Positions 4,027-20,821 of a stretch of 64,000 nt of DNA are shown here, one piece after another. How positions within the stretch are numbered: the stretch's first letter is position 1; every line of letters starts with the position of its first letter. The DNA is from Nannocystaceae bacterium ST9. Its GTDB lineage: Bacteria; Myxococcota_A; Polyangia; Nannocystales; Nannocystaceae. The translations under genes were made by a program, and so were the position numbers. The notes below the pieces were generated by a model. That model saw only the letters and a list, made by a program, of their open reading frames with translations, was not told the origin of the DNA and did not search any database. The stretch lies in assembly GCA_048320885.1 (NCBI GenBank), contig JBLWFJ010000001.1, positions 1,349,642 to 1,413,641 of the forward strand, written 5' to 3'.

Positions 4027-4462
4027 AACCCCCTCCATGCGACCCTGCCTACGTGGGGCATTGCGTGGTTCCCCTGCTCGGGCCGTCTCGCCCTCGCGGG
4101 GAATGGACAACGGGTTCGGCTTCGCCTCCCCTCGCTCCCTGCTTCGGCGAGATCCCTTCGCCGAAGCAGAACCAACCTGCGCCGAAGCAGAACCAACCTG
4201 CGCCGAAGCAGAACCAAACTGCGCCGAAGCAGAACCAGCCTGCGCCGAAGCAGAACCAAACTGCGCCGAAGCAGAACCAAACTGCGCCGAAGCAGAACCA
4301 AACTGCGCCGAAGCAAACGACCCTCCGCCGAAGCGAGCAAGGGGAGCGAAGCGAACCCGCTGTCCATTCCCCGCGAGGGCGAGACGGCCCGAGCAGGGGA
4401 ACCACGCAATACCCCAAGTAGGCAGAGCCGCGTGGAGGGGGTTCCTCGAGCGAAGCTCGAGG
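3996..4462. repeat. Nested palindromic element: ~150-bp imperfect inverted-repeat arms flanking 8 x 21-bp tandem repeats
   Basis: Left arm ~3996-4150 and right arm ~4300-4462 are near-identical reverse complements; the core gcgtggttcccctgctcgggccgtctcgccctcgcggggaatggaca is perfect. The six-frame ORFs on both strands mirror each other here (MGYCVVPLLGPSRPRGEWT / MGHCVVPLLGPSRPRGEWT). Confidence 0.8.
4152..4320. repeat. 21-bp tandem repeat x8 (cgccgaagcagaaccaa[a/c]ctg)
   Basis: Direct reading of the sequence. The unit reads as the 7-aa PKQNQ[PT]A or AEAEP[TN]C in different frames. It lies in the loop of the inverted-repeat element. Confidence 0.85.
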
Positions 4463-5283: not shown

Positions 5284-5913
5284 GTGTACCCCCTGTTCCT
5301 GCTCGCCGTGCTCACGGTGCTCACGCTCGGACTGGCCCAGCGCCTCGGCCTGCTGGGCGACACGACCCTGATGATCGGGGCCTCGCTGCTCGGCGGCGTG
5401 ACCTTCCTTTCCGTTCACCCCGACCTCGACTGGATCGGCGAAGAACCGCAAGATCAGACCTGCGGACTCGAAGGCGAAGACGAGCTGGCGATCCGGGTCG
5501 AGCGAATTTCGGTCGATGACGCGCAGGCATTGCTGGGCGACGAGACCGTGACCTTCGTCGACGCTCGCAGCGGCGACGACTACGTGGCGGCGCACATCCC
5601 CGGCGCCGTGAGCCTGCCGGCCAGCGACGCGGCCGGGATCCTCGAGATCCAGTCGGTGCCGATCCTGCCCGAGGGGCAGGTCATCACCTACTGCAACGGT
5701 GGCGCCTGCGAGCAGTCCGAGTACCTCGGCGTGCTGCTGCGCGACCGCGAGGTCTGCAAGCAGGTCATGGTGCTCGAGGGCGGCTGGGCGGCGTGGGTCG
5801 AGGCCGCGGCGCCGACGGTCAGCGGCGAGGGCCAAGATGGATCGATCTCGGTCGACGTCGCGAACCCGAGCCCGAGCGAGCCCTGCGAGCCGAGCGAGGC
5901 GGTGCGCGGATGA
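5284..5913 (+). CDS. Rhodanese-domain sulfurtransferase with N-terminal membrane anchor
   Basis: Active-site loop YCNGGACEQS, plus FVDARSGDDYVAAHIPGA; hydrophobic N-terminus. The stop overlaps the next start (ATGA 5910-5913). Confidence 0.7.
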   Translation: MYPLFLLAVLTVLTLGLAQRLGLLGDTTLMIGASLLGGVTFLSVHPDLDWIGEEPQDQTCGLEGEDELAIRVERISVDDAQALLGDETVTFVDARSGDDYVAAHIPGAVSLPASDAAGILEIQSVPILPEGQVITYCNGGACEQSEYLGVLLRDREVCKQVMVLEGGWAAWVEAAAPTVSGEGQDGSISVDVANPSPSEPCEPSEAVRG

Positions 5914-6374
5914 CCACGCTCGACACGACCTCGAAGGATCCCGAGTGGATGCGCGCGGCCGGCTGGATCGGTCGCTTGGTCGCGGGCGGCGTGTTCGTGT
6001 ACGCGGGCGGGCTCAAGCTGCTCGACCCGGCCGCGTTCGCGCAGGACATCGGCAACTATCAGGCCTTCCCCTGGTGGACCTGGAACCTCGCCGCCGCGGT
6101 CGTGCCGATCGCCGAGATCCTCGCCGGGCTCGCCCTGATCAGCGGCATCAAGCGGCGCGCCGGCGCGATCGTGCTCGGCTCGCTGACGGTCGCGTTCCTC
6201 GGCTTGATCGCCTCGGTGATCGTCCGCGGCATCGACTTGAACTGCGGCTGCTTCGGCGACGCGGCCGAGGCCAGCGCCGTCGGCTGGCCGCTCTTCTTCC
6301 GCGATCTCGCGCTGCTGGTCGCGATCGTCGCGGCCTACCTGCCGGCCGAGGCTCGCTCTTCGACCACGCCCTGA
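5910..6374 (+). CDS. DoxX/MauE-family membrane protein
   Basis: MTTLDTTSKDPEWMRAAGWIGRLVAGGVFVYAGGLKLLDP..., DLNCGCFG motif, 4 predicted TM helices. Translationally coupled to the rhodanese gene. Confidence 0.7.
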   Translation: MTTLDTTSKDPEWMRAAGWIGRLVAGGVFVYAGGLKLLDPAAFAQDIGNYQAFPWWTWNLAAAVVPIAEILAGLALISGIKRRAGAIVLGSLTVAFLGLIASVIVRGIDLNCGCFGDAAEASAVGWPLFFRDLALLVAIVAAYLPAEARSSTTP

Positions 6375-7354
6375 GCGTCCTCGGCCAGCGCCGCCGACTC
6401 GACCCGCGCAGCCGACTCAGACGCCGGCTCGGCCACCGGAGGGGGCCGGCCGATCAGGCTCCGCGCACGCGACCCGAGATCCCGCGCGAGCTTGGTCAGC
6501 GCGGCATAGTCGGAGTCCGACAAGAGCAGCATCTCCGCGCCGATCATGATCACCGCGAAGCTGTTGAGCCCCATGAACGAGAAGATCCCGAGGTGGAAGG
6601 AGATCGCACAGATCACCGCCACCCGACGCGGCCACGGCTTGCCGAAGAAGTAGACCCAGGGGAACGCGAGTTGGAGCATCAGCGGGGCCCAGGTCATCAG
6701 GCCGAGCAGGTAGCGGTTGTTCCAGATCAGCGCCCCGAACCCGGTCATGCCGAAGTCCTCCGAGGCGAGCACGTAGTAGAACGCCGTGCCGTTCTGCCAG
6801 TACTTGCCCGGCACCTTGGCGATGCCGGCGGTGAAGTACATGATCGAGATCTGGATCGCGCAGGCCAAGAGCGCGGCGTTGTGCAGCGTGATCCGAGTCC
6901 GCGACATCGGCTTGCCCTGGGCCGGCGAGTTCCACAGGTCGGCGAAGATCGCGAAGATCATGATGATCTCGGCCAGGTTGTCGCCGCCGTCCCAGAGCGC
7001 CGGACAGCGTGCATGCAGGCTGTGGACGACCCACCAGGCCAAGAGCGTTCCGACGTGGCCGCCCAAGCCGACGGTCCACAGGCCGAGCACGACCAGACCG
7101 GCGAGGTACCCGAACCACTGCCAGGCGTTGCTCCCGGACAGCGCCATGTACGAGTAGTGGATCCGGCCGAAGCTGGCGGCGAAGCCATCGTAGGGAAAGA
7201 TCGACCCCGGGCCCATCAACAGGTCGAACTGGCCGATGAGCATCGTCAACTGCAAGAGCAGCGCGGTGCCGACGATGACGCGGAACAGCACCGCGCCCCG
7301 GAGTTGGCGAGGCTCCTCGCTGAAGGAGTCCAAGACACGCGTGATTTCATTCAT
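6335..7354 (-). CDS. HTTM-domain (vitamin K-dependent gamma-carboxylase-like) integral membrane protein
   Basis: 339 aa, multi-TM, LRGAVLFRVIVGTALL... typical HTTM N-terminus. The start ATG overlaps the upstream stop (ATGAATGA at 7347-7354). Confidence 0.65.
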   Translation of the reverse strand: MNEITRVLDSFSEEPRQLRGAVLFRVIVGTALLLQLTMLIGQFDLLMGPGSIFPYDGFAASFGRIHYSYMALSGSNAWQWFGYLAGLVVLGLWTVGLGGHVGTLLAWWVVHSLHARCPALWDGGDNLAEIIMIFAIFADLWNSPAQGKPMSRTRITLHNAALLACAIQISIMYFTAGIAKVPGKYWQNGTAFYYVLASEDFGMTGFGALIWNNRYLLGLMTWAPLMLQLAFPWVYFFGKPWPRRVAVICAISFHLGIFSFMGLNSFAVIMIGAEMLLLSDSDYAALTKLARDLGSRARSLIGRPPPVAEPASESAARVESAALAEDAQGVVEERASAGR

Positions 7355-8165
7355 GGAAGTCGACCTCGGTCGGAGTCGGCGACGCGATCGGACCCGCTGG
7401 TTCCGTCAGCCCGGCTGCTTTCTGTTCGAAGTAGAGATCGAGGTACTCGCGGGCGCGGACATCGAGATCCTCGATCTCGGCGGGCCGCAGCCACGGCACG
7501 CTGACCGCGGTCGGCTCCTCGACGTGGTCGGGATCGTTGCGGTACGAATAGGGCGTGATCTTGCGGGTGACGATCCGGTAGCGGATGCGATCGACCTCGC
7601 CGACGCCATCCTGCCGACAGTAGTGCCAGATCAGGTGGTAGGCCGTGCGGCTCGAGGCGATGTTCTCGGCGACCTTGTGGGCGATCAGATCGTTGATCGC
7701 GTCGCGCTGCTCGGGCGGGGCCTCGTCGAGGCTGGCGATCAACTGATCGAGCAGGACGTCTTGACCGCCCAAGGTCGCGAGCACCGCGGCTTGCTCGATC
7801 CGGCGCAGGCGACCGGCGGGCCCGAAGCGGCGCCCCGCGTGGCTCTCGAGCAGCTCGTCGCCGCGGCTCAGCCACTCGGTCTCGACGCCGTCGCGATCGC
7901 ACTGGTAGTCGAGCCGGCGATCGAGCAGCGGCGGATCGGGGGCGAACAGAGTCCAGCGCTGACGGAAGAGCGGCTCGAGGTACGCGAGCGCCTCGTTGCG
8001 CCAGTGCAGACCGACGACGCTGACCGAGTTGAGATAGACGGCCGTGATCGTGAAGTGCACGGTCAAGACCGCCAAGCAGGCGACCGTCAGCGCTCGCGTG
8101 CGCCACGAGGGGGCCGCGAGCTGGGGTGGATTCGACGCGACTCGGGGATCGGGTTGGCTCGACAT
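7347..8165 (-). CDS. DUF5819-like protein (frequent HTTM partner)
   Basis: 272 aa with an N-terminal TM (LTVACLAVLTVHFTITAVYL). Sits immediately upstream of, and coupled with, the HTTM gene. Confidence 0.55.
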   Translation of the reverse strand: MSSQPDPRVASNPPQLAAPSWRTRALTVACLAVLTVHFTITAVYLNSVSVVGLHWRNEALAYLEPLFRQRWTLFAPDPPLLDRRLDYQCDRDGVETEWLSRGDELLESHAGRRFGPAGRLRRIEQAAVLATLGGQDVLLDQLIASLDEAPPEQRDAINDLIAHKVAENIASSRTAYHLIWHYCRQDGVGEVDRIRYRIVTRKITPYSYRNDPDHVEEPTAVSVPWLRPAEIEDLDVRAREYLDLYFEQKAAGLTEPAGPIASPTPTEVDFHE

Positions 8166-8175
8166 GACTCTCGGC

Positions 8176-10797
8176 TCAGAGCTGGACGTCGCCGAGGTCG
8201 ACGACCTCGGCAGCGCCTCGTTCGACGGCGACGGTGGTCGCGAGCTCCTGCGCGTTCTCGCCGGTCCCGACGAAGTGCAGCAGGAGTGGGCCAGGAGGCA
8301 GGCCCGTGATTCGGAACGCTCCCTGGTCGTCGGTGCGGTTGACCTGGGTGGTGAACGACTCGATCGCCGCGCGACTGAAGGTGTCGCACGCGTCGCGGGT
8401 CGGCAGCGCGAACACCTGGTAGCCGGCCAGCGGCTCGCCGTCGGGAGCGAGCGCGCGACCTTCCGCGCTCAGCCAGCCATCGCCCTCGACGCTGACCGTC
8501 GCGCTCGCGCCGGTCACTTCGGTCTCGACGCTGCCGTAGCTCTTCTCGCCACAGAACACGACCCGGTACTTGCCCGCGAGCAAGCCCGTGACCACGGTGG
8601 AGCCGGAGTCCGAGGCGGTCCGCTCGATCCGGGTCTTGCCGAGGATCACGACCTTCCCACGCTCGCCGGGATGCTGAACGGTCAGCTCGCTCTCGGGTGG
8701 CACGATCAACGCGTTCGGGCCTTCGACCCGCAGCGTGGCGTCGAGCGCCGCGGTCGAGTAGCCGGCGCGGTGGAAACGAACCGCCAGCGCCCCCTCGTCG
8801 GTCCACGCGATCAGCTCGAAGCGGCCCTCGGAGTCGGACACGGCCTGCAGCGAACGGTCCTGGTCGGCGAACACGACGGCACCTTCGACCGCGCCGCCGT
8901 CCTCGTCCTCGACCCGACCTCGGAAGGTCTCTTGCTTCGAGGTGACCGCGAGATCGAGGCGCTCGTCGGCCCCCTCGGCGAGCTCGAGCTTGGTCGGACC
9001 TTCAAAGCCGACCGTGCCACGCGAGTGACGAAGGACCAGCGCGTAGCTGCCCGGCTCGAGCCCCTGCGCCGCGAACTGCCCGTCGTCGCCGACGTCGATC
9101 TCGTAGAGCGGCGAGCCGGCGGCCCGGGTCCCGTCGATTCGCTGCGGCTCCCCGGTCGGCGAGAGCACCAGCTGCAGGCCCGACGCGGCGCCGAGGTTGC
9201 TGACCACCCCGCTCACCCGCGCCGCCGGAGCGAGCACGAGCTCGACCTCGCCGCCCTGGCGAGCGATCTCGGCGTCGATCTCCAGCTCCGCGCGCCCGTG
9301 CGCCACGTGCTCGGCGACCAACACGACCTCGCCGAGCGAGAGCGGACCCATGCTGAACTTGCCCTCGGCGTTGGTCTGGGTGGTGCGAAACGCGTTCATC
9401 ATCGCGAAGCCCATGGTCCCGAACTCGAGCTTGGCGAGGTCCATGCGTGCACGGATCTCGATGCCCTGGATCGGCGGGCTGACCCGGCCCGCGATCATGT
9501 AGCCACGCTCGACCTCGAGATCGAGGAACTCGTCTTGCTCGGCGACGTTGATCACCCCGCCCAGCAAGTTGCCCGCGTACTCCTTGTGGGCGACGATCGT
9601 GTGGTAGCGGCCCTTGGGGACCGAGCCGCAGTCGAACTGGCCCTGCGCGTCGCTCTCGTCGCAGACCAGGATGGAGGTGTCGCCCTTGAGAGTGACGAGC
9701 GCGCCGGCGACCGGCACGTCCCCTCCACGCTCGCGGACCTTGCCGTAGACGGGCGTGCCGCTCACGAGCGTGAGCTCGACGCCCTCGAGCTGCTCGTAGA
9801 GCTCGACCGAGATCTCGACGGGCGCCTCGGTCGAGGCCGTGGCCGAGATGGCATGAACCGCCCACGAACCAAACCCGACGTTCTCGAGCCGAAACGAGCC
9901 GTCGGGGCCGGAGACGCCGTCCGCTCGCGCGGCGTGATTGACCACCGAGCCGCCGGCCTCGAGCAGACGGACCAGTCGAATCTCGGCCCCGGCGACGCCC
10001 GGCCCCGAGGGGCCGAGCACGACCCGCCCGCTCACGGTGGTCCCGGGGCTGAGCACCAGCGCGACGTCGACCCGATCGCGCTGGCGGGTGTCGGCCCCCG
10101 TCGAACTGCTCGAATAGCCCGGGAACGCGCTGCGGACCACATAGCGGCCTGGAGAGACCTGGATCGAGAATGCGCCCCGCTCGTCGGTGTCGACCCGAAA
10201 TACCGGCTGTTCGAAGCCGAATCCGTTGACGGTGCCTTCGGGGATCACGTCGACGTCGGCCCCGTCGAGCGGCCCGCCGAACACGTCGGCGACCGTCCCT
10301 TCGATCGTGGTCGCGGGGCCGCTCGGAAGCGTGATTTCGTAGACGTGGTCCTCGCAGCGACGAGGCGCGGCGATCGATTGACTGAACGCGAGCGAGCCGG
10401 GGATCACCACCGCGAGCGCGATCGGCCCACCGGGGACCCGCGGAACCTGCCAATTGCCCTCGGGATCGACCTTGGCGACCTGGACGGGATGGGCGGTGCC
10501 CGGTTTGGCCAGCGAGACGGTGACGGTCCCACCCACCGCGGCGGGGTCATGGCCGAGGATTCGCCCACACAGGGTGAGTCGTTGATTGTCTCGCGACGAT
10601 TCCGGTCGCGCCGGCCGGTCGGCCGAATCACGCGAGCGCGTATTGCCCCCTTCGCCCTCGTCGCGTTCGGCCTCGCGCGACTCACTCGATTCCCGATTGT
10701 CCCGATTGTTCTGGCCCAGCCACCAAACACCGATGATTGCCGCGATCGCGGCAACGACGAGGAGAATCCGTGACGTTCGAGCTTCGGGCTTGGACAT
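8176..10797 (-). CDS. Large membrane-anchored protein with ~8 carboxypeptidase-regulatory-like (CarboxypepD_reg / transthyretin-like) repeats
   Basis: ORF 8176..10866, start assigned at MSKPEARTSRILLVVAAIAAIIGVWW (TM anchor, ATG complement 10795-10797). Recurrent G-R/K-V...DA.G.F.l..l.pG.Y modules. Confidence 0.7.
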   Translation of the reverse strand: MSKPEARTSRILLVVAAIAAIIGVWWLGQNNRDNRESSESREAERDEGEGGNTRSRDSADRPARPESSRDNQRLTLCGRILGHDPAAVGGTVTVSLAKPGTAHPVQVAKVDPEGNWQVPRVPGGPIALAVVIPGSLAFSQSIAAPRRCEDHVYEITLPSGPATTIEGTVADVFGGPLDGADVDVIPEGTVNGFGFEQPVFRVDTDERGAFSIQVSPGRYVVRSAFPGYSSSSTGADTRQRDRVDVALVLSPGTTVSGRVVLGPSGPGVAGAEIRLVRLLEAGGSVVNHAARADGVSGPDGSFRLENVGFGSWAVHAISATASTEAPVEISVELYEQLEGVELTLVSGTPVYGKVRERGGDVPVAGALVTLKGDTSILVCDESDAQGQFDCGSVPKGRYHTIVAHKEYAGNLLGGVINVAEQDEFLDLEVERGYMIAGRVSPPIQGIEIRARMDLAKLEFGTMGFAMMNAFRTTQTNAEGKFSMGPLSLGEVVLVAEHVAHGRAELEIDAEIARQGGEVELVLAPAARVSGVVSNLGAASGLQLVLSPTGEPQRIDGTRAAGSPLYEIDVGDDGQFAAQGLEPGSYALVLRHSRGTVGFEGPTKLELAEGADERLDLAVTSKQETFRGRVEDEDGGAVEGAVVFADQDRSLQAVSDSEGRFELIAWTDEGALAVRFHRAGYSTAALDATLRVEGPNALIVPPESELTVQHPGERGKVVILGKTRIERTASDSGSTVVTGLLAGKYRVVFCGEKSYGSVETEVTGASATVSVEGDGWLSAEGRALAPDGEPLAGYQVFALPTRDACDTFSRAAIESFTTQVNRTDDQGAFRITGLPPGPLLLHFVGTGENAQELATTVAVERGAAEVVDLGDVQL

Positions 10798-10888
10798 GAA
10801 TCTCTCGCGCGATCGCGATCCGACATGACGGAAGCACCTCGGTCGGGCGCCCATCGGGGCACCCAACCGAGGCTACGGGGACACCAGA

Positions 10889-11191
10889 CTAGTCGAGCAG
10901 GTAGTCGGCGTTGGCGTCCGCGAGCGTGTTCATCTGCTGCTGCGACGAGCCGGCGAGCCACTTGCCGACTTCCTTGCCGAGGTCGTACAACTTGTCCGCG
11001 GTCCAGGCGTAGGCCGCGAGAGCACCACCGACGAGCGCGACGGTGACGGTCGGATCGGCGACCATCGCCTCCGATTCGATGACCTCGTTCTGAGCGGTGG
11101 CGGTCGGCGTCCAGGCCAGACTCGAGATTGCGGTCGCACCAACCAAGGTGGCGACGAGCGTGAGCTTGATTCGGGTGTTGTAGGTCTTCAT
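10889..11191 (-). CDS. Small secreted protein, paralog 1 (100 aa)
   Basis: Internal Met of ORF 10889..11548: MKTYNTRIKLTLVATLVGATAISSLAWTPTATAQ (Sec signal, AxA site), acidic segment, Gly/Ala-rich helix. Starts 8 nt after the paralog 2 stop. Confidence 0.55.
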   Translation of the reverse strand: MKTYNTRIKLTLVATLVGATAISSLAWTPTATAQNEVIESEAMVADPTVTVALVGGALAAYAWTADKLYDLGKEVGKWLAGSSQQQMNTLADANADYLLD

Positions 11192-11199
11192 GGCGTTGA

Positions 11200-11490
11200 T
11201 CAGTTGAGCGCGTACTCGAAGGCGAGCGGGTCGAAGTCCGCCAACTGCTCCGCGGGTTGCGGCTTGTTCTTGCACTCCATGTAGCCCTGAGCGATTCCCA
11301 GCAGAAACGCCCCGGCCAGGCCTGCAACAGCCACGACGGCGATCGCCGGAAGAACCGCGAGCGCCTCGGAGTTGGTCTCCTCGACGTCCTGTTCGATCGC
11401 AGCTTGCGCTTCGTGTTCGGTGGTGAGCGAAAGGGTCGCGGTGACGAGCGTCAAGGCCACGACCGCAGAAGTAATCTTGCGGTTTTTCAT
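11200..11490 (-). CDS. Small secreted/membrane protein, paralog 2 (96 aa)
   Basis: MKNRKITSAVVALTLVTATLSLTTEHEAQA signal, acidic AIEQDVEETNSEA, TM helix with GxxxG/A motifs. Upstream SD GAGGGAG. Confidence 0.55.
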   Translation of the reverse strand: MKNRKITSAVVALTLVTATLSLTTEHEAQAAIEQDVEETNSEALAVLPAIAVVAVAGLAGAFLLGIAQGYMECKNKPQPAEQLADFDPLAFEYALN

Positions 11491-11699
11491 CGATCTCCCT
11501 CTTCGGAGGTCCCCAGACACCCCGATCGCCGTCGACAATATAGACCACTCGGTTTCACTTCAAGACAATTTTTCATTGCCATCGAAGTGCCATCCGAGGG
11601 TATGGCTGGTCTCTCGACCAAATCGCCGGTGCCCATGCCTGCATTGCTACTGGCCCAAAGTACGCGATTCGCCGAGTCGCATGTTCGCGGAATGGTCGG

Positions 11700-11790
11700 T
11701 CGAATGTCGGTCGAATGTCGGTCGATTGGTCGGTCGATTGGTCGTTCGAACATCACGGTTCGAACATCACGATTCGACTCTCACCTGACG
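11700..11790. repeat. Three consecutive short tandem duplications in the AT-richer acyl-CoA dehydrogenase upstream region
   Basis: ggtcgaatgtc x2, ggtcgattggtc x2, gttcgaacatcacg x2, read directly. Candidate operator or regulatory sites. Confidence 0.6.
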
Positions 11791-12023
11791 CGACTATTAC
11801 GAAAGACTATTGTGACACTCCATCGATGTGTCTCGCTCGCTATCGCTCGGCACCACCCTCGACGAGTGGGCCGCGAGGCCGTTCAGGCTCATGTCCTCGA
11901 TTCTGGCCTCCCGTTCAGCGCACGAGACGCTAGGCCCTCCAGCCACCGCGCAAGGGACGCGAATCCCCGAGGTCGTGTCCGGGCCGACCCCTGCGACGGC
12001 TCGCGCGGTCCAACCCGCCCCTC

Positions 12024-17815: not shown

Positions 17816-18355
17816 ATGGTCCATCCGGTCCAGAGCGTGGTCGAGTCGCTCTACGCCGCCGGGCGCTGCCCACGGCTGCACGTCAACGCGACGTGCGAGG
17901 GCGTCGTGTGTCCCGACTTCATCCGCGAGCAGTGGCAGGAGCGTCTGATCATCGATCTCGACGCCACCTACCCGCTCGACCTCTCGTTCACCGACGAAGG
18001 CATCGGAGCCGACCTCTCGTTCGGCGGCTACGTGACCCGCTGCGCCTTCCCCTGGAAGGCGATCTACGTGGTCGCCGATCGTGCCACCGGCCGCGGGATC
18101 GTGCTCGACCAGAACATGCCCGAGTCGGTCCGCCGCAGCCGTCACCAGCCCGTGACCGGCCCGCTCCCGCCCGGCGCCGAGCTGCGGCCCGCGCCCGCGC
18201 CCGAGCCCGACATTCGTCCGGCTCGCGTGAAGCCGGCCCAGCCGATCGCCAAGCCCAGCGCCGTCCCGCAGAGCTCCGCGTCGAGCGGCTCCGGGCACGA
18301 AGGCGAGGCTCAGCGCCGCCGGGCCGCGTTCAAAGTCATCGACGGCGGAGGCTGA
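17816..18355 (+). CDS. Putative ClpXP adaptor SspB-like protein
   Basis: RLIIDLDATYPLDLSFTDEGIGADLSFGGYVTRCAFPWKAIYVVADRATGRGIVL fits the SspB core pattern (...N..P.A...LEL....V.F.ARF.G......VP..A.LAIYA.ENG.G), with a disordered Pro/Ala tail. Confidence 0.45.
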   Translation: MVHPVQSVVESLYAAGRCPRLHVNATCEGVVCPDFIREQWQERLIIDLDATYPLDLSFTDEGIGADLSFGGYVTRCAFPWKAIYVVADRATGRGIVLDQNMPESVRRSRHQPVTGPLPPGAELRPAPAPEPDIRPARVKPAQPIAKPSAVPQSSASSGSGHEGEAQRRRAAFKVIDGGG

Positions 18356-18358
18356 CGC

Positions 18359-18661
18359 GTGTCCTCGGGCAAGATCGCCGGGCTGATCGTGTCGGGGATC
18401 GCCGTGGCGATCTTCGTGTTTTGGTGGGTGATGGTCCGGGCTCCCAGCCCGCAGGCGATCTGCAAGCACAAGATCCAGCTCGTGCTGAACGAGGTGCCGC
18501 AAGATCAGCAGGTCGGGGCCGACGCGCTGATCATGCAGCTCGAGCTGCGCTGCGTCGAGGCGGCCGAGAAGAAGATCCAGTTTCGCGGCAAGCTCGTGTA
18601 CGCCGAGTATGCCCGCTGCGTCGCGGCGGCCCAGACCCTCGGCGAGGCCGAGCGCTGCTGA
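18359..18661 (+). CDS. Small membrane protein (hypothetical)
   Basis: GTG start 4 nt after the SspB-like stop. One TM (IAGLIVSGIAVAIFVFWWVMV) and a coiled C-terminus. Confidence 0.4.
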   Translation: MSSGKIAGLIVSGIAVAIFVFWWVMVRAPSPQAICKHKIQLVLNEVPQDQQVGADALIMQLELRCVEAAEKKIQFRGKLVYAEYARCVAAAQTLGEAERC

Positions 18662-18676
18662 GGCATCCTCTCCCGC

Positions 18677-19444
18677 GTGCCCTTCGCCCCTGCCCTGCTC
18701 GCCGCGACGCTCGCGGTGGTGTTCCTCGCCGCGCTGGTCCGCACGACCTGGGGCTTCGGTGACGCGGTCGTGGCGATCCCGCTGCTGAGCTTGCTGGTCA
18801 GCATGCAGGTCGCCTCGCCGATGCTGGTGATGGTCAGCATCGTGCTCTCGCTGCTGCTCTTGCGCCGAGGCATGAGCCTGCTCGACTTCGGCGTGATCGC
18901 CCGGCTCCTGCTCGGAGCGCTGGCCGGCATCCCGCTCGGGCTGCTCGTGCTGACCGACCTGCCCGAGTCGCTCGCGCGCAAGGGCCTGGGCGGCGTGCTG
19001 CTCGGGTTCGCGATCTGGTCGCTGATCCGCGCTCGCCGAGCGAAGCCCGCGCTCGCGCGCGAGCCCACGCCACCGCTCGCGCTGGCCAAGGCGCTCCCGC
19101 TCGACCTCGGGTTCGGCGTGCTGGTCGGCGCATGCAGTGCGGCCTTCGACATCTCCGGCCCGGTCTTGCTGATCCACGCGACCGCCCGGCGATGGACGCC
19201 CGAGCAGCTGCGCATGAACTTGCAGGCCGTGTTCCTGCCGCTCGGGTTGCTGACGATGACCGGCCACGCGCTCTCGGGCCTGTGGACGCGCGACGTGCTC
19301 CTGCTCGCGGCCTGGTGCCTGCCGGTGGTGATGCTCGCGCGAGTGTTCGGCGAGCGGCTGCGGGTCCGACTCGAAGGCCAGCGCGGGGTGGTCGTGCTCT
19401 ACCTGCTGATCTTCGCGCTCGGCGTGCTGATGCTCGCGGTCTGA
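18677..19444 (+). CDS. TSUP-family (TauE/SafE) anion exporter
   Basis: 255 aa, about 8 TM helices with the internal two-fold repeat typical of TauE/SafE. Confidence 0.75.
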   Translation: MPFAPALLAATLAVVFLAALVRTTWGFGDAVVAIPLLSLLVSMQVASPMLVMVSIVLSLLLLRRGMSLLDFGVIARLLLGALAGIPLGLLVLTDLPESLARKGLGGVLLGFAIWSLIRARRAKPALAREPTPPLALAKALPLDLGFGVLVGACSAAFDISGPVLLIHATARRWTPEQLRMNLQAVFLPLGLLTMTGHALSGLWTRDVLLLAAWCLPVVMLARVFGERLRVRLEGQRGVVVLYLLIFALGVLMLAV

Positions 19445-19545
19445 GCGGATCTTTATGCGTTCTTGATCCCCGCCGGCCCGCTTCCGCATGCCGGCCCGAC
19501 ACCGCGCCGCCCAGGCCCGACTACGCTGCGCGCCGGAGACCCTGG

Positions 19546-19688
19546 CCATGCCCGAACTCGAAGTCGTGCTCGAGCGCCTCGTCGGCGTGATCGTGCTCGT
19601 GATGCTCGTGACGCTCGCCCTGCTCGCGACCGTGTCGATCGTCTGGACCCTGGCCAGCGACGATCACGAGCAAGACCGGCTCGGGTGA
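19546..19688 (+). CDS. Possible 47-aa single-TM peptide upstream of the KdpD-type kinase
   Basis: Internal Met MPELEVVLERLVGVIVLVMLVTLALLATVSIVWTLASDDHEQDRLG, with GGAGA 8 nt upstream. Confidence 0.25.
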
Positions 19689-19704
19689 GCGAAGATGGTC
19701 GCGG

Positions 19705-20821
19705 CATGCCGACGCGCACCCCCGCTCGCGTTCCGCTCGTGCTCGAGTTCGTGCTCGCGTTGGTGGTCGTCGCCGCGGTCAGCCTGGTCGCGCTGCTGCT
19801 CGAGCCCTTCCTCGCGCAGACCGACCACGTGATGCTCTACCTGCTCGGGGTGATCGCGGTCGCGTTCCGAGCCCGGCGTGGCCCGGCCTTGCTCGCCGCG
19901 GTCGCGAGCGTGGCGGCCTTCGACTTCCTGTTCGTCGAGCCGCGCTTCACCTTCGCGATCAGCGACACCCGCTACCTGCTGACCTTCGCGGTCATGGCGA
20001 CGATCGGCGTGGTCGTGGTCTCGCTGGTCGCCGAGGTCCGCAAGCAGGAGCGCGTCGCGTTCGAGCGCGAGGTCGCGGTTCAGGGCGAGCGGCTGCGCTC
20101 GGCCTTGCTGGCCTCGGTCTCGCACGATCTTCGCACGCCGCTCGGGGCGATCCTCGGGGCCGTGACCACGCTCGAGCAAGATCGCGAGAAGCTCGATCCC
20201 GGCGTGCAGACCAGCTTGCTGGCCAGCATCCACGACCAGACCGAGCACCTCAACCGACTGCTGCGCAACCTGCTGGAGATGACCCGGCTCGAGGGCGGCG
20301 CGGTCGTGCTCGCGCGCGAGCTGGCGGCGATCGAGGAGCCGATCGGCACGGTGCTGGCCTCGCTGACCCACCGGATCGGCGATCGGCGGATCGAGGTCGA
20401 GCTCGACGCGGTCGAGGGGCCGCTCTTCGCGACCTTCGATCCGATCGCGGTCGAGCTCGTGCTCAGCAACCTGATCGAGAACGCGCTGCGCTACGGCGGC
20501 GATCCGATCGAGATTCGAGCGGCGCGCGAGGGCGATGCGATCGCCGTGCGCGTGCTCGACCGTGGGCCCGGGCTCGATGAACACACGCTCGCCCACGCGT
20601 TCGAGAAGTTTCAGCGCGGGCTGGTCGGCGAGCGCAAGGGCGGCCCGGGCTCGGGCGGCGCCGGGCTCGGGCTGGCGATCGTCCGCAGCCTGGTCGAGGC
20701 CAGCGGCGGGCGCGTGTGGGCCCGCAACCGCGACGACGGACGGGGAGCCGAATTCGGGTTCACGCTCCCGCGCGCCGAGCTGCCGATCTTGCCCGAGGGG
20801 CTCCCGGAGGACTCGCCATGA
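19705..20821 (+). CDS. kdpD: Sensor histidine kinase carrying only the KdpD-type C-terminal half (4-TM DUF4118-like region + HisKA + HATPase), no KdpD-N/Usp domains
   Basis: MPTRTPARVPLVLEFVLALVVVAAVSLVALLLEPFLAQTDHVMLYLLGVIAVAF... (KdpD membrane domain), then SHDLRTPL H-box and N/G boxes. The stop overlaps kdpE (ATGA). Confidence 0.75.

Follow-up and report, generated by a model that had tools for sequence, protein, structure and literature searches.

Homologues of the vitamin K-dependent carboxylase are widespread in bacteria. To our knowledge, few of them have been given a role (toxin maturation for SdpB/YitO, an antibiotic pathway for MloH, and candidate roles in linaridin clusters), and we know of no bacterial protein substrate of these homologues with a known modification. 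Here we describe a five-gene operon of the marine myxobacterium Nannocystaceae bacterium ST9, located in a 64,000-nucleotide stretch of its genome (the window), that encodes an HTTM/SdpB-like protein, a DUF5819 protein, a large repeat protein, and two small proteins with Sec signal peptides; for the last three we use the working labels BIG, smA, and smB. We suggest, with a probability of about 0.55, that the operon encodes a system for the tag-directed maturation of proteins, with a split bacterial homologue of the vitamin K-dependent carboxylase at its centre, the tag being a short conserved element at the C-terminus of the small proteins.

The closest experimentally studied analogue is SdpABC/YitPOM of Bacillus subtilis, in which processing of the Sec-exported SdpC requires both SdpA and SdpB (PMC6818787). 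Both systems combine an HTTM-superfamily protein, a partner, and a Sec-exported precursor with a hydrophobic domain (PMC6818787). However, the partner in the window is DUF5819 and not SdpA, the HTTM protein reaches 91 bits where the SdpB cutoff is 178, and there are two precursors of ~100 aa instead of one of ~200 aa. Neither of them matches SdpC, with which smA and smB have only the general layout in common: signal peptide, hydrophobic segment, and tail. The window operon adds the conserved C-terminal tag and an 873-aa protein of immunoglobulin-like (Ig) repeats, and its host is Gram-negative, unlike that of SdpABC. No SdpI/SdpR-type immunity or signalling genes were found among the window neighbours or in the related cassettes. 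With an SdpB score below the cutoff and without SdpA, SdpC, or SdpI/R, the cassette is, on these comparisons, not an SdpABC member.

In human gamma-glutamyl carboxylase (GGCX), K218 is the base that deprotonates the quinol, W223 is a stacking tryptophan, and F299 stacks the CO2, whereas Asn159 and His160 hold the carboxylate of the substrate Glu (PMC12647623). Mutations of His160 cripple the enzyme, and a Leu-Glu dipeptide is seated in the catalytic pocket via N159, H160, and Y395 (PMC12647623). The window enzyme and GGCX have a common predicted fold, profile homology, and equivalents of K218, W223, and F299. The substrates of GGCX are secretory-pathway proteins, and the window candidates likewise bear Sec signals; moreover, the hydrophobic-acidic Leu-Glu of the GGCX pocket resembles the Leu-Asp/Asn end of the window tag. 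Unlike GGCX, the window enzyme is split into an HTTM and a DUF5819 gene, and the small proteins lack a GGCX-type N-terminal propeptide or Gla domain. Their conserved element is C-terminal and ends with Asp or Asn, not with Glu.

Two further bacterial precedents concern secondary metabolites and peptides. MloH, a vitamin K-dependent-carboxylase-like enzyme of malonomycin biosynthesis, acts on Asp (PMC12186529; PMC12647623). By its published description, it resembles the window enzyme as a bacterial HTTM-family enzyme with an Asp target rather than Glu; in contrast, it is a fused single polypeptide whose substrate is a PKS-NRPS intermediate instead of a ribosomal secreted protein. Linaridins are peptides that are made by the ribosome and then modified post-translationally (RiPPs), and their clusters encode an HTTM-domain membrane protein, e.g., CrdG, beside the ribosomal precursor, which is assumed to act in maturation (PMC9927463). 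Their precursors carry a leader peptide in place of a Sec signal, and the clusters include other tailoring enzymes without DUF5819, repeat protein, or C-terminal tag. With SdpAB/YitPO (PMC6818787), MloH (PMC12186529), and the linaridin HTTM protein (PMC9927463) as precedents, the function of bacterial HTTM proteins is not as blank as a preliminary description of this DNA had put it. In kind, the cassette would be of a known type, HTTM-dependent maturation of exported ribosomal proteins. In the literature on DUF5819, bacterial HTTM, and HTTM in RiPPs, we found neither the cassette nor the tag described.

The preliminary description had also proposed class IIb two-peptide bacteriocins as an alternative, and the likeness lies in two adjacent small genes with GxxxG helices. 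Class IIb bacteriocins have double-glycine leaders, an ABC/C39 transporter, and an immunity gene, whereas the window proteins carry Sec signal peptides with AxA cleavage motifs and their conservation is tied to HTTM. Neither an ABC/C39 transporter nor an immunity gene was found within or beside the operon, and this class was ruled out.

The five genes stand in series on the minus strand, as first described and as borne out by the list of open reading frames (ORFs) and the sequence:
11200-11490, minus strand: smA, 96 aa
10889-11191, minus strand: smB, 100 aa
8176-10797, minus strand: BIG, 873 aa counted from the ATG
7347-8165, minus strand: DUF5819 protein, 272 aa
6335-7354, minus strand: HTTM/SdpB-like protein, 339 aa

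They run head to tail, with intergenic gaps of 8, 91, and 10 nt in gene order, followed by an 8-nt overlap between the DUF5819 stop and the HTTM start, by which these two genes are judged to be translationally coupled. The host genome has ~68% GC, and the GC content at the three codon positions (GC1/2/3) shows a coding-type pattern in all five genes (GC2 0.41-0.50; GC3 0.79-0.93, with 0.79 in smA and 0.88 in smB). A ribosome-binding site, AGGGAG, is found upstream of smA. In Nannocystaceae bacterium ST9, smA and smB are annotated as ACNOYE_05730 and ACNOYE_05735, and the HTTM-like product has a 100% identical database protein from the same bacterium. The database annotation gives that protein 318 aa, with a start 21 codons downstream of the ATG used here. 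The 339-aa form is more likely, because residues before the annotated start, such as G20, are invariant among 25 HTTM homologues and because the longer form brings the 8-nt overlap with the DUF5819 stop.

As read from the sequence, both small proteins begin with a Sec signal peptide that has a basic n-region, a hydrophobic core of 17-18 residues, and a cleavage motif, AQA in smA and ATA in smB. In the remainder of smA, an acidic segment of 16 aa precedes a strongly hydrophobic helix (residues 46-64; Kyte-Doolittle 19-aa maximum of 2.5), which is followed by a short tail and the C-terminal EYALN. In smB, an acidic segment is followed by a weakly hydrophobic Ala/Gly-rich segment, an amphipathic helix (YDLGKEVGKW), and the C-terminal DYLLD. 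Thus, the signal peptides, acidic stretches, and Ala/Gly-rich segments of the preliminary description stood, and its claim that the two are paralogues did so only weakly: BLASTP gave no alignment of smA with smB, and profile-profile comparison (hhalign) gave a collinear match over 99 columns with 89.7% probability (E=1.8e-6), a score possibly inflated by signal-peptide and hydrophobic composition. They are distant paralogues at best.

Profile searches of 5.8 billion proteins retrieved 14 smA clusters and 15 smB clusters, all of ~100 aa, and the smB profile, run exhaustively with HMMER against 1.84 billion representatives, retrieved 14 proteins. Both families are confined to this lineage, and neither smA nor smB has a significant match to a Pfam or NCBIfam family, SdpC included. 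The smA family (14-member alignment) has an invariant core, GL.GAF..G.AQGYME.KN, at the end of the very hydrophobic helix; the smB family (15-member alignment) has AAYGW.A.K.YDLGKEVG after the weakly hydrophobic segment. GxxxG motifs are invariant in both (G65-G69 in smA and G72-G76 in smB).

For co-conservation, we considered every looked-up contig long enough to show the neighbours of smA or smB homologues. All of them show the order smA-smB-BIG-DUF5819-HTTM: Pseudenhygromyxa (L001) and five loci from metagenomes or metagenome-assembled genomes (MAGs) (L002, L058, L059, L060, and L061/62), and the flanks vary between loci (SecA/LiaF-like, IF-2B, kinases, GST). Identity of the small proteins across genera is 33-56%, and the reading frame is kept. 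Because the same cassette recurs with different flanks, the sequence comparisons mark smA and smB as real, co-conserved genes tied to the enzyme pair as one cassette. The small ORFs therefore stood up to the coding-potential, conservation, and co-conservation checks named in the preliminary description. As a separate observation, a LiaF-like_C gene (PF09922) stands before smA in two cassettes (L001 2988-3581 and L059 1042-1680) and is absent from the window.

A conserved C-terminal tag, absent from the preliminary description, ends the cassette small proteins immediately before the stop codon, with the consensus [DE]-x-[LVA]-L-[DN]-COOH. In the window, family alignments and motif statistics place it as follows:
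11203-11217, minus strand: smA tag codons, E-Y-A-L-N (smA family alignment and motif statistics)
10892-10906, minus strand: smB tag codons, D-Y-L-L-D (smB family alignment and motif statistics)

The C-terminus is [DE][YH][VA]L[DN] in the smA family and [DE]xLL[DN] in the smB family, where the most distant relatives end with LLD or VLD. We counted a strict form of the tag, [DEN][YFW]x[LIVM][NDE] before the stop, in the six-frame ORFs of the window and 54 loci: it ended 11 of 12,669 ORFs, with ~0.5 expected, and all 11 were at cassettes. Four of these ORFs (in L003, L004, L005, and L007) lack homology to smA and smB. L003, L004, and L007 encode a protein with a signal peptide and Gln/Pro-rich repeats, ending with TEFVLD, and L005 encodes a 160-aa protein with the end VEFLLD; their genes are located downstream of BIG or upstream of DUF5819. 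Two more tag-bearing proteins are encoded in L006 (EFLLDD and DEFLD), and L002 has a third small gene (ADYLLD) and, after a second DUF5819-HTTM pair, a fourth secreted protein (AAHLLD). Tag-bearing genes number from 1 to 4 per cassette. A relaxed form, [LVIA]L[DN] before the stop, was found in 33 of 2,097 same-strand ORFs near cassettes vs. 8 of 11,822 elsewhere. Judging by the sequences compared, the tag is the only feature common to all cassette small proteins, homologous or not.

Looser ends, with a hydrophobic residue, Phe or Leu, and Asp near the C-terminus, are found beside DUF5819-HTTM pairs in other phyla. At these distant loci, adjacent signal-peptide ORFs end with AFDY, AAFDQ, EIFD, LLFDY, KIFDAQ, SSFDQ/SSFDL, or KILDQQ, and also with RAFD (Streptomyces) and NILDN (Deinococcales). 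A general motif, [AILVFM][FL][DN].{0,3} before the stop, was present in 30 of 141 signal-peptide-like ORFs near cassettes vs. 6 of 748 elsewhere; it was written after seeing the data, so that the odds ratio of 33 is post hoc and its p-value optimistic. In a Kofleriaceae locus (L009 13067-14315), three tandem paralogous small genes with signal peptides lie ~2 kb downstream of DUF5819-HTTM, and two such genes are seen in L071 (10067-10929). They have a conserved (A/T)(I/L/T)LDL(T/R)P near the C-terminus, followed by a short extension, and these motifs may be tag variants with a trailing peptide.

For the HTTM protein, the family assignment of the preliminary description stood as homology, not as a direct match: no match to Pfam HTTM (PF05090) was obtained for the window protein at E<0.1, and its sole Pfam match was LMF1 (E=0.096). 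PF05090 matches 27 of its 34 aligned relatives, with a best E of 8.7e-17. The NCBIfam SdpB family (TIGR04033) matched the window protein at E=7.6e-26 and 91.3 bits, below the cutoff of 178.4, and 33 of the 34 relatives behave in the same way; several homologues are annotated as 'antimicrobial peptide system SdpB family'. By these scores, the protein is homologous to SdpB yet outside the curated family. When the 34 relatives were combined into a profile headed by the window protein, it matched human GGCX with E=1e-18 over 222 of its positions. Only this broad profile bridged to GGCX: a narrower profile of close relatives found nothing among PDB sequences, even at E<=10.

The AlphaFold model of the HTTM protein (pLDDT 86.6, pTM 0.81) was compared to the PDB with Foldseek. 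The top 15 entries were all cryo-EM structures of human GGCX (E from 2.4e-5 to 7e-4; query-normalised TM-score 0.50-0.57), and the next matches had E>0.1. In the profile alignment, Y173-F-T-A-G-I-A-K180 of the window protein falls on Y211...A214...K218 of GGCX, W186 on W223, and F266 on F299. K180 is invariant in all 34 sequences, and W186 and F266 are nearly so. Fold, profile, and catalytic Lys together identify the HTTM-like protein, at the level of sequence and model, as a member of the HTTM/GGCX superfamily. A second HTTM paralogue is encoded in the same genome.

The DUF5819 assignment of the preliminary description was confirmed by a match to PF19136 (E=8e-16, 59.5 bits, gathering cutoff 27.1), a family that also matches 19 of 19 DUF5819 relatives. 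The protein has one N-terminal transmembrane helix, with an invariant His and with Arg residues before the helix, followed by the DUF5819 domain. Among the 52 genome loci and 74 metagenome loci collected with the HTTM profile, DUF5819 lies directly upstream of HTTM in 27 and 37, respectively, and the 27 genome loci belong to Myxococcota, Streptomyces, Bacteroidia, Deinococcales, and Armatimonadaceae. From these loci, the DUF5819-HTTM pairing is general and the five-gene cassette is lineage-specific. DUF5819 is predicted to be the partner subunit of the HTTM protein.

A preprint that used AlphaFold 3 models a DUF5819-HTTM heterodimer resembling whole GGCX, with DUF5819 in the position of the GGCX clamp domain and a predicted menaquinol pocket near the conserved Lys, Trp, and Phe (bioRxiv 10.64898/2026.08.19.745780). 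That pair and ours are the same adjacent genes, with a DUF5819 protein of one transmembrane helix plus domain. The preprint pair comes from a Firmicute, its HTTM protein is fused to a DCC1-like domain, and no substrate is named (bioRxiv 10.64898/2026.08.19.745780); the window pair, unlike it, lies within a cassette with candidate clients and a repeat protein.

Several loci deserve mention for the surroundings of the enzyme pair. A second DUF5819-HTTM pair directly follows the first in L002 (8998-10930) and in L061/L062 (6845-8777), and L060 contains the start of a second DUF5819 (6973-7587). In a Nannocystaceae-like MAG (L055 3597-7899), HxsB/HxsC/HxsD-type radical-SAM genes of the His-Xaa-Ser system are located immediately upstream of DUF5819 on the same strand. 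In another Myxococcota group (L012, L013, L017, and L022), a lipoprotein-like protein of ~200-237 aa is encoded downstream of HTTM. In L012, L013, and L017, two further membrane proteins come after it, and one of these has a W(R)(F/L)GGWGMYATP motif and looks like a second, divergent copy of the enzyme module.

BIG has a membrane anchor at its N-terminus (residues ~11-28), then a disordered, charged linker, and then beta-sandwich repeats. Pfam CarboxypepD_reg (PF13620) matches it in 5 stretches (E=1.3e-46), with NOMO-like matches too, and an iterated internal profile resolved 8 transthyretin-like repeats of ~70 aa over residues 84-860. The roughly eight CarboxypepD_reg-type repeats first described were thus recovered, in a protein of 873 and not 874 aa. 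A 94-aa gap in the array could hide a ninth repeat. BIG was seen with the enzyme pair only in Nannocystaceae-type loci and in all such cassettes, either upstream of DUF5819 (the window, L001, L002, L058, L059, and L060) or downstream of HTTM (L003, L004, L005, L006, and L007). In the acidobacteriote Acanthopleuribacter pedis (L029 11593-14997), an HTTM protein of ~611 aa is followed by a ~1,130-aa protein with a weak match to BIG (E=1e-6), which hints at an independent association of HTTM with Ig repeats.

At the mechanistic level, we propose that HTTM and DUF5819 form one enzyme with its active site toward the periplasm, since the GGCX site is lumenal, from which we argue by homology, and since the DUF5819 and BIG anchors are N-in. 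By analogy with GGCX, this enzyme would turn menaquinol and O2 into a strong base; myxobacteria use menaquinones. After export by Sec, smA and smB would be candidate clients of HTTM/DUF5819: the C-terminal hydrophobic-Leu-Asp/Asn motif would serve for their recognition, and their modification or processing would occur in or close to it. The Ig-like repeats of BIG may act as periplasmic scaffold or hand-off partner. We favour clients because diverse exported proteins, a short common end motif, and a dedicated adjacent enzyme are unlike obligate subunits. Tag-directed modification or processing is the most economical version because GGCX seats Leu-Glu, MloH acts on Asp, and SdpAB process SdpC. 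The preliminary description had named the small proteins as candidate substrates or partners of the HTTM enzyme: their functional tie to it is upheld by the recurrence of the cassette, and the Gla-region rationale behind the idea is not.

Several observations weigh against this maturation system. In the HMM alignment, Asn159/His160 of GGCX fall on G124/D125 of the window protein, a placement that could be one residue off, and all 34 aligned relatives have Gly/Asp there, within an invariant or nearly invariant GGD motif. Asp263 of GGCX aligns with Q228. The quinol-activating machinery thus looks intact and the Glu-binding part does not, and by its Glu-binding residues the window enzyme is not a gamma-glutamyl carboxylase. 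Because neither Asp263 nor Asn159/His160 is conserved, the chemistry may not be carboxylation at all. The last tag residue can be either Asp or Asn, which fits poorly with a pocket that recognises a carboxylate, and the general motif for distant loci was, as said, fitted after the fact. The NCBIfam model of the SdpA family matches none of the 19 DUF5819 relatives nor the window protein, which weakens the SdpABC analogy, and single-sequence prediction of the DUF5819 fold was of low confidence (pLDDT 38.6). The role of BIG is not accounted for by the client model.

Topology adds a further difficulty. The hydrophobic helix of smA (Kyte-Doolittle 2.5) is followed by Lys, and a simple prediction puts the smA tag in the cytoplasm, on the side predicted to be opposite to the putative periplasmic active site. 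In several tag-bearing proteins, no second hydrophobic segment is present, and their C-termini must be exported. For smA, prediction alone does not settle the topology, because the hydrophobic SDP peptide leaves the cell anyway.

Among the rival explanations, an SDP-like two-peptide toxin survives best, although we consider it unlikely. Here, the hydrophobic helices of smA and smB would be excised with the help of HTTM/DUF5819 and released as membrane-active antimicrobial or cannibalism peptides, which makes it a special case of the enzyme-client relation with a defined end product. SdpB is the best named family of the HTTM protein, down to the antimicrobial annotation of its homologues, and the layout of smA matches SdpC/YitM, Sec-exported precursors whose hydrophobic domain becomes the toxin (PMC6818787). 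A central hydrophobic segment is present in about half of the tag-bearing proteins, and the invariant GxxxG motifs of smA (G65-G69) and smB (G72-G76) would suit such helices. However, no SdpI/YitQ-like immunity protein, SdpR, ABC exporter, or protease was found in or beside the window and the related cassettes, and neither smA nor smB matches the SdpC family. Sister cassettes carry Gln/Pro-rich or larger proteins without a hydrophobic core in place of smA and smB. The cores of smA and smB are strongly conserved across genera, whereas SdpC-type toxin domains vary between groups (PMC6818787), and a Gram-negative producer also needs an exit route through the outer membrane.

The invariant small-residue faces and interface-like helix motifs (GL.GAF..G.AQGYME.KN) could instead mean that smA and smB belong, as small membrane subunits, to an envelope complex with HTTM, DUF5819, and BIG, the true substrate being something else (a lipid, a quinone, or another protein). 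The fixed gene order and the translational coupling are in line with this, as is the smA helix, a bona fide transmembrane segment by its hydrophobicity. We nevertheless find it quite improbable: obligate subunits are not normally replaced by non-homologous proteins that keep only a five-residue tag, a cassette holds anywhere from 1 to 4 tag-bearing genes, and in many tag-bearing proteins the signal peptide is followed by no membrane segment.

The preliminary description had seen a parallel to Gla regions in the Glu/Asp-rich stretch right after the signal peptide, which the HTTM enzyme would gamma-carboxylate. This is very unlikely. In its favour, both the window proteins and several orthologues have acidic stretches, these would lie in the periplasm close to the membrane, the expected place of a GGCX-like active site, and the catalytic Lys, Trp, and Phe are conserved. 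But the acidic composition of most members comes with no invariant position, and hence no invariant Glu: ESE becomes RAQ, NAE, or HER in relatives, and some members keep a single acidic residue. The residues that correspond to Asn159/His160 are Gly/Asp in 34 of 34 relatives, and mutations of His160 cripple GGCX (PMC12647623). No propeptide-like conserved element precedes the stretch, and what the non-homologous cassette proteins have in common is the C-terminal tag, not an N-terminal acidic block. A Gla region as the main explanation was therefore rejected by acidic-stretch conservation and active-site mapping, and the stretch is probably a spacer.

That the small ORFs are spurious or merely adjacent to the enzyme genes has in its favour that they belong to no Pfam or NCBIfam family and that high-GC genomes yield many long spurious ORFs, but it is effectively refuted by conservation (33-56% identity across genera with the frame kept, and an unchanged position in at least six cassettes that differ in their flanks), besides the coding-type GC1/2/3 and the ribosome-binding site, and we give it next to no weight.

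Returning to the tag-directed maturation system, we extend it beyond Nannocystaceae only tentatively. DUF5819-HTTM pairs across phyla might possibly be tag-directed enzymes that use menaquinol and O2 for carboxylation, or for another deprotonation-based modification, of the terminal Asp/Asn or a neighbouring residue, the tag being a hydrophobic-(Leu/Phe)-(Asp/Asn) motif at the very C-terminus of small Sec-exported proteins. If this were true, the bacterial homologues of the vitamin K-dependent carboxylase would have their first ribosomal protein substrates, the reaction would be an Asp-directed, C-terminal counterpart of Gla formation, and the Nannocystaceae system would have gained a periplasm-spanning Ig-repeat partner. 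At the practical level, the locus and the tag give candidate substrates of ~100 aa and a five-residue motif to mutate, synthesise, and search for genome-wide. Should the chemistry prove true, it would offer a view of an ancient enzyme family before blood clotting, a new route of post-translational modification or processing in the bacterial envelope, a rule for finding clients, and some light on how SdpAB make the SDP toxin.

Upstream of the operon, the following features were located:
11491-12023, no strand assigned: upstream intergenic region of 533 nt, common to the operon and a divergent acyl-CoA dehydrogenase gene
11690-11750: 12-nt tandem repeat, 5.2 copies, GAATGGTCGGTC, within the upstream intergenic region
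11744-11777: 14-nt tandem repeat, 2.4 copies, GTTCGAACATCACG, within the upstream intergenic region

The operon promoter presumably lies in this region. A consensus scan of the operon gave no sigma-70-like promoter and no convincing terminator, and an Rfam search gave no match; since the promoter and terminator scan was uninformative, the single transcript is argued from gene spacing. Lying about 200-290 nt upstream of smA, the tandem arrays at 11690-11777 could bind a regulator of either the operon or the divergent acyl-CoA dehydrogenase gene.

At its 3' border, the operon meets a convergent MauE/DoxX gene that overlaps the 3' end of the HTTM gene by 40 nt. The neighbours of the operon in the window are MauE/DoxX, rhodanese, a beta-barrel-like protein, and acyl-CoA dehydrogenase. 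The rhodanese and MauE/DoxX genes occupy 5284-6374 on the plus strand, convergent with HTTM; in Pseudenhygromyxa (L001 8955-9518), the convergent neighbour of the cassette encodes a Redoxin/AhpC-TSA protein, and a DCC1-like thiol-disulfide oxidoreductase is fused to 4 of the 34 HTTM relatives. Such thiol/quinone-redox neighbours recur beside cassettes, though not in all loci, and may be linked to quinone or epoxide recycling.

Outside the operon, a 21-nt tandem repeat (CCTGCGCCGAAGCAGAACCAA; 8.6 copies, 93% matches) was found at 4155-4334 of the window, in a stretch without a convincing gene where long repetitive ORFs arise in several frames. Finally, the AT skew is near zero in the rest of the first 20 kb of the window and falls to -0.15 to -0.30 over ~2 kb at 18001-20000.

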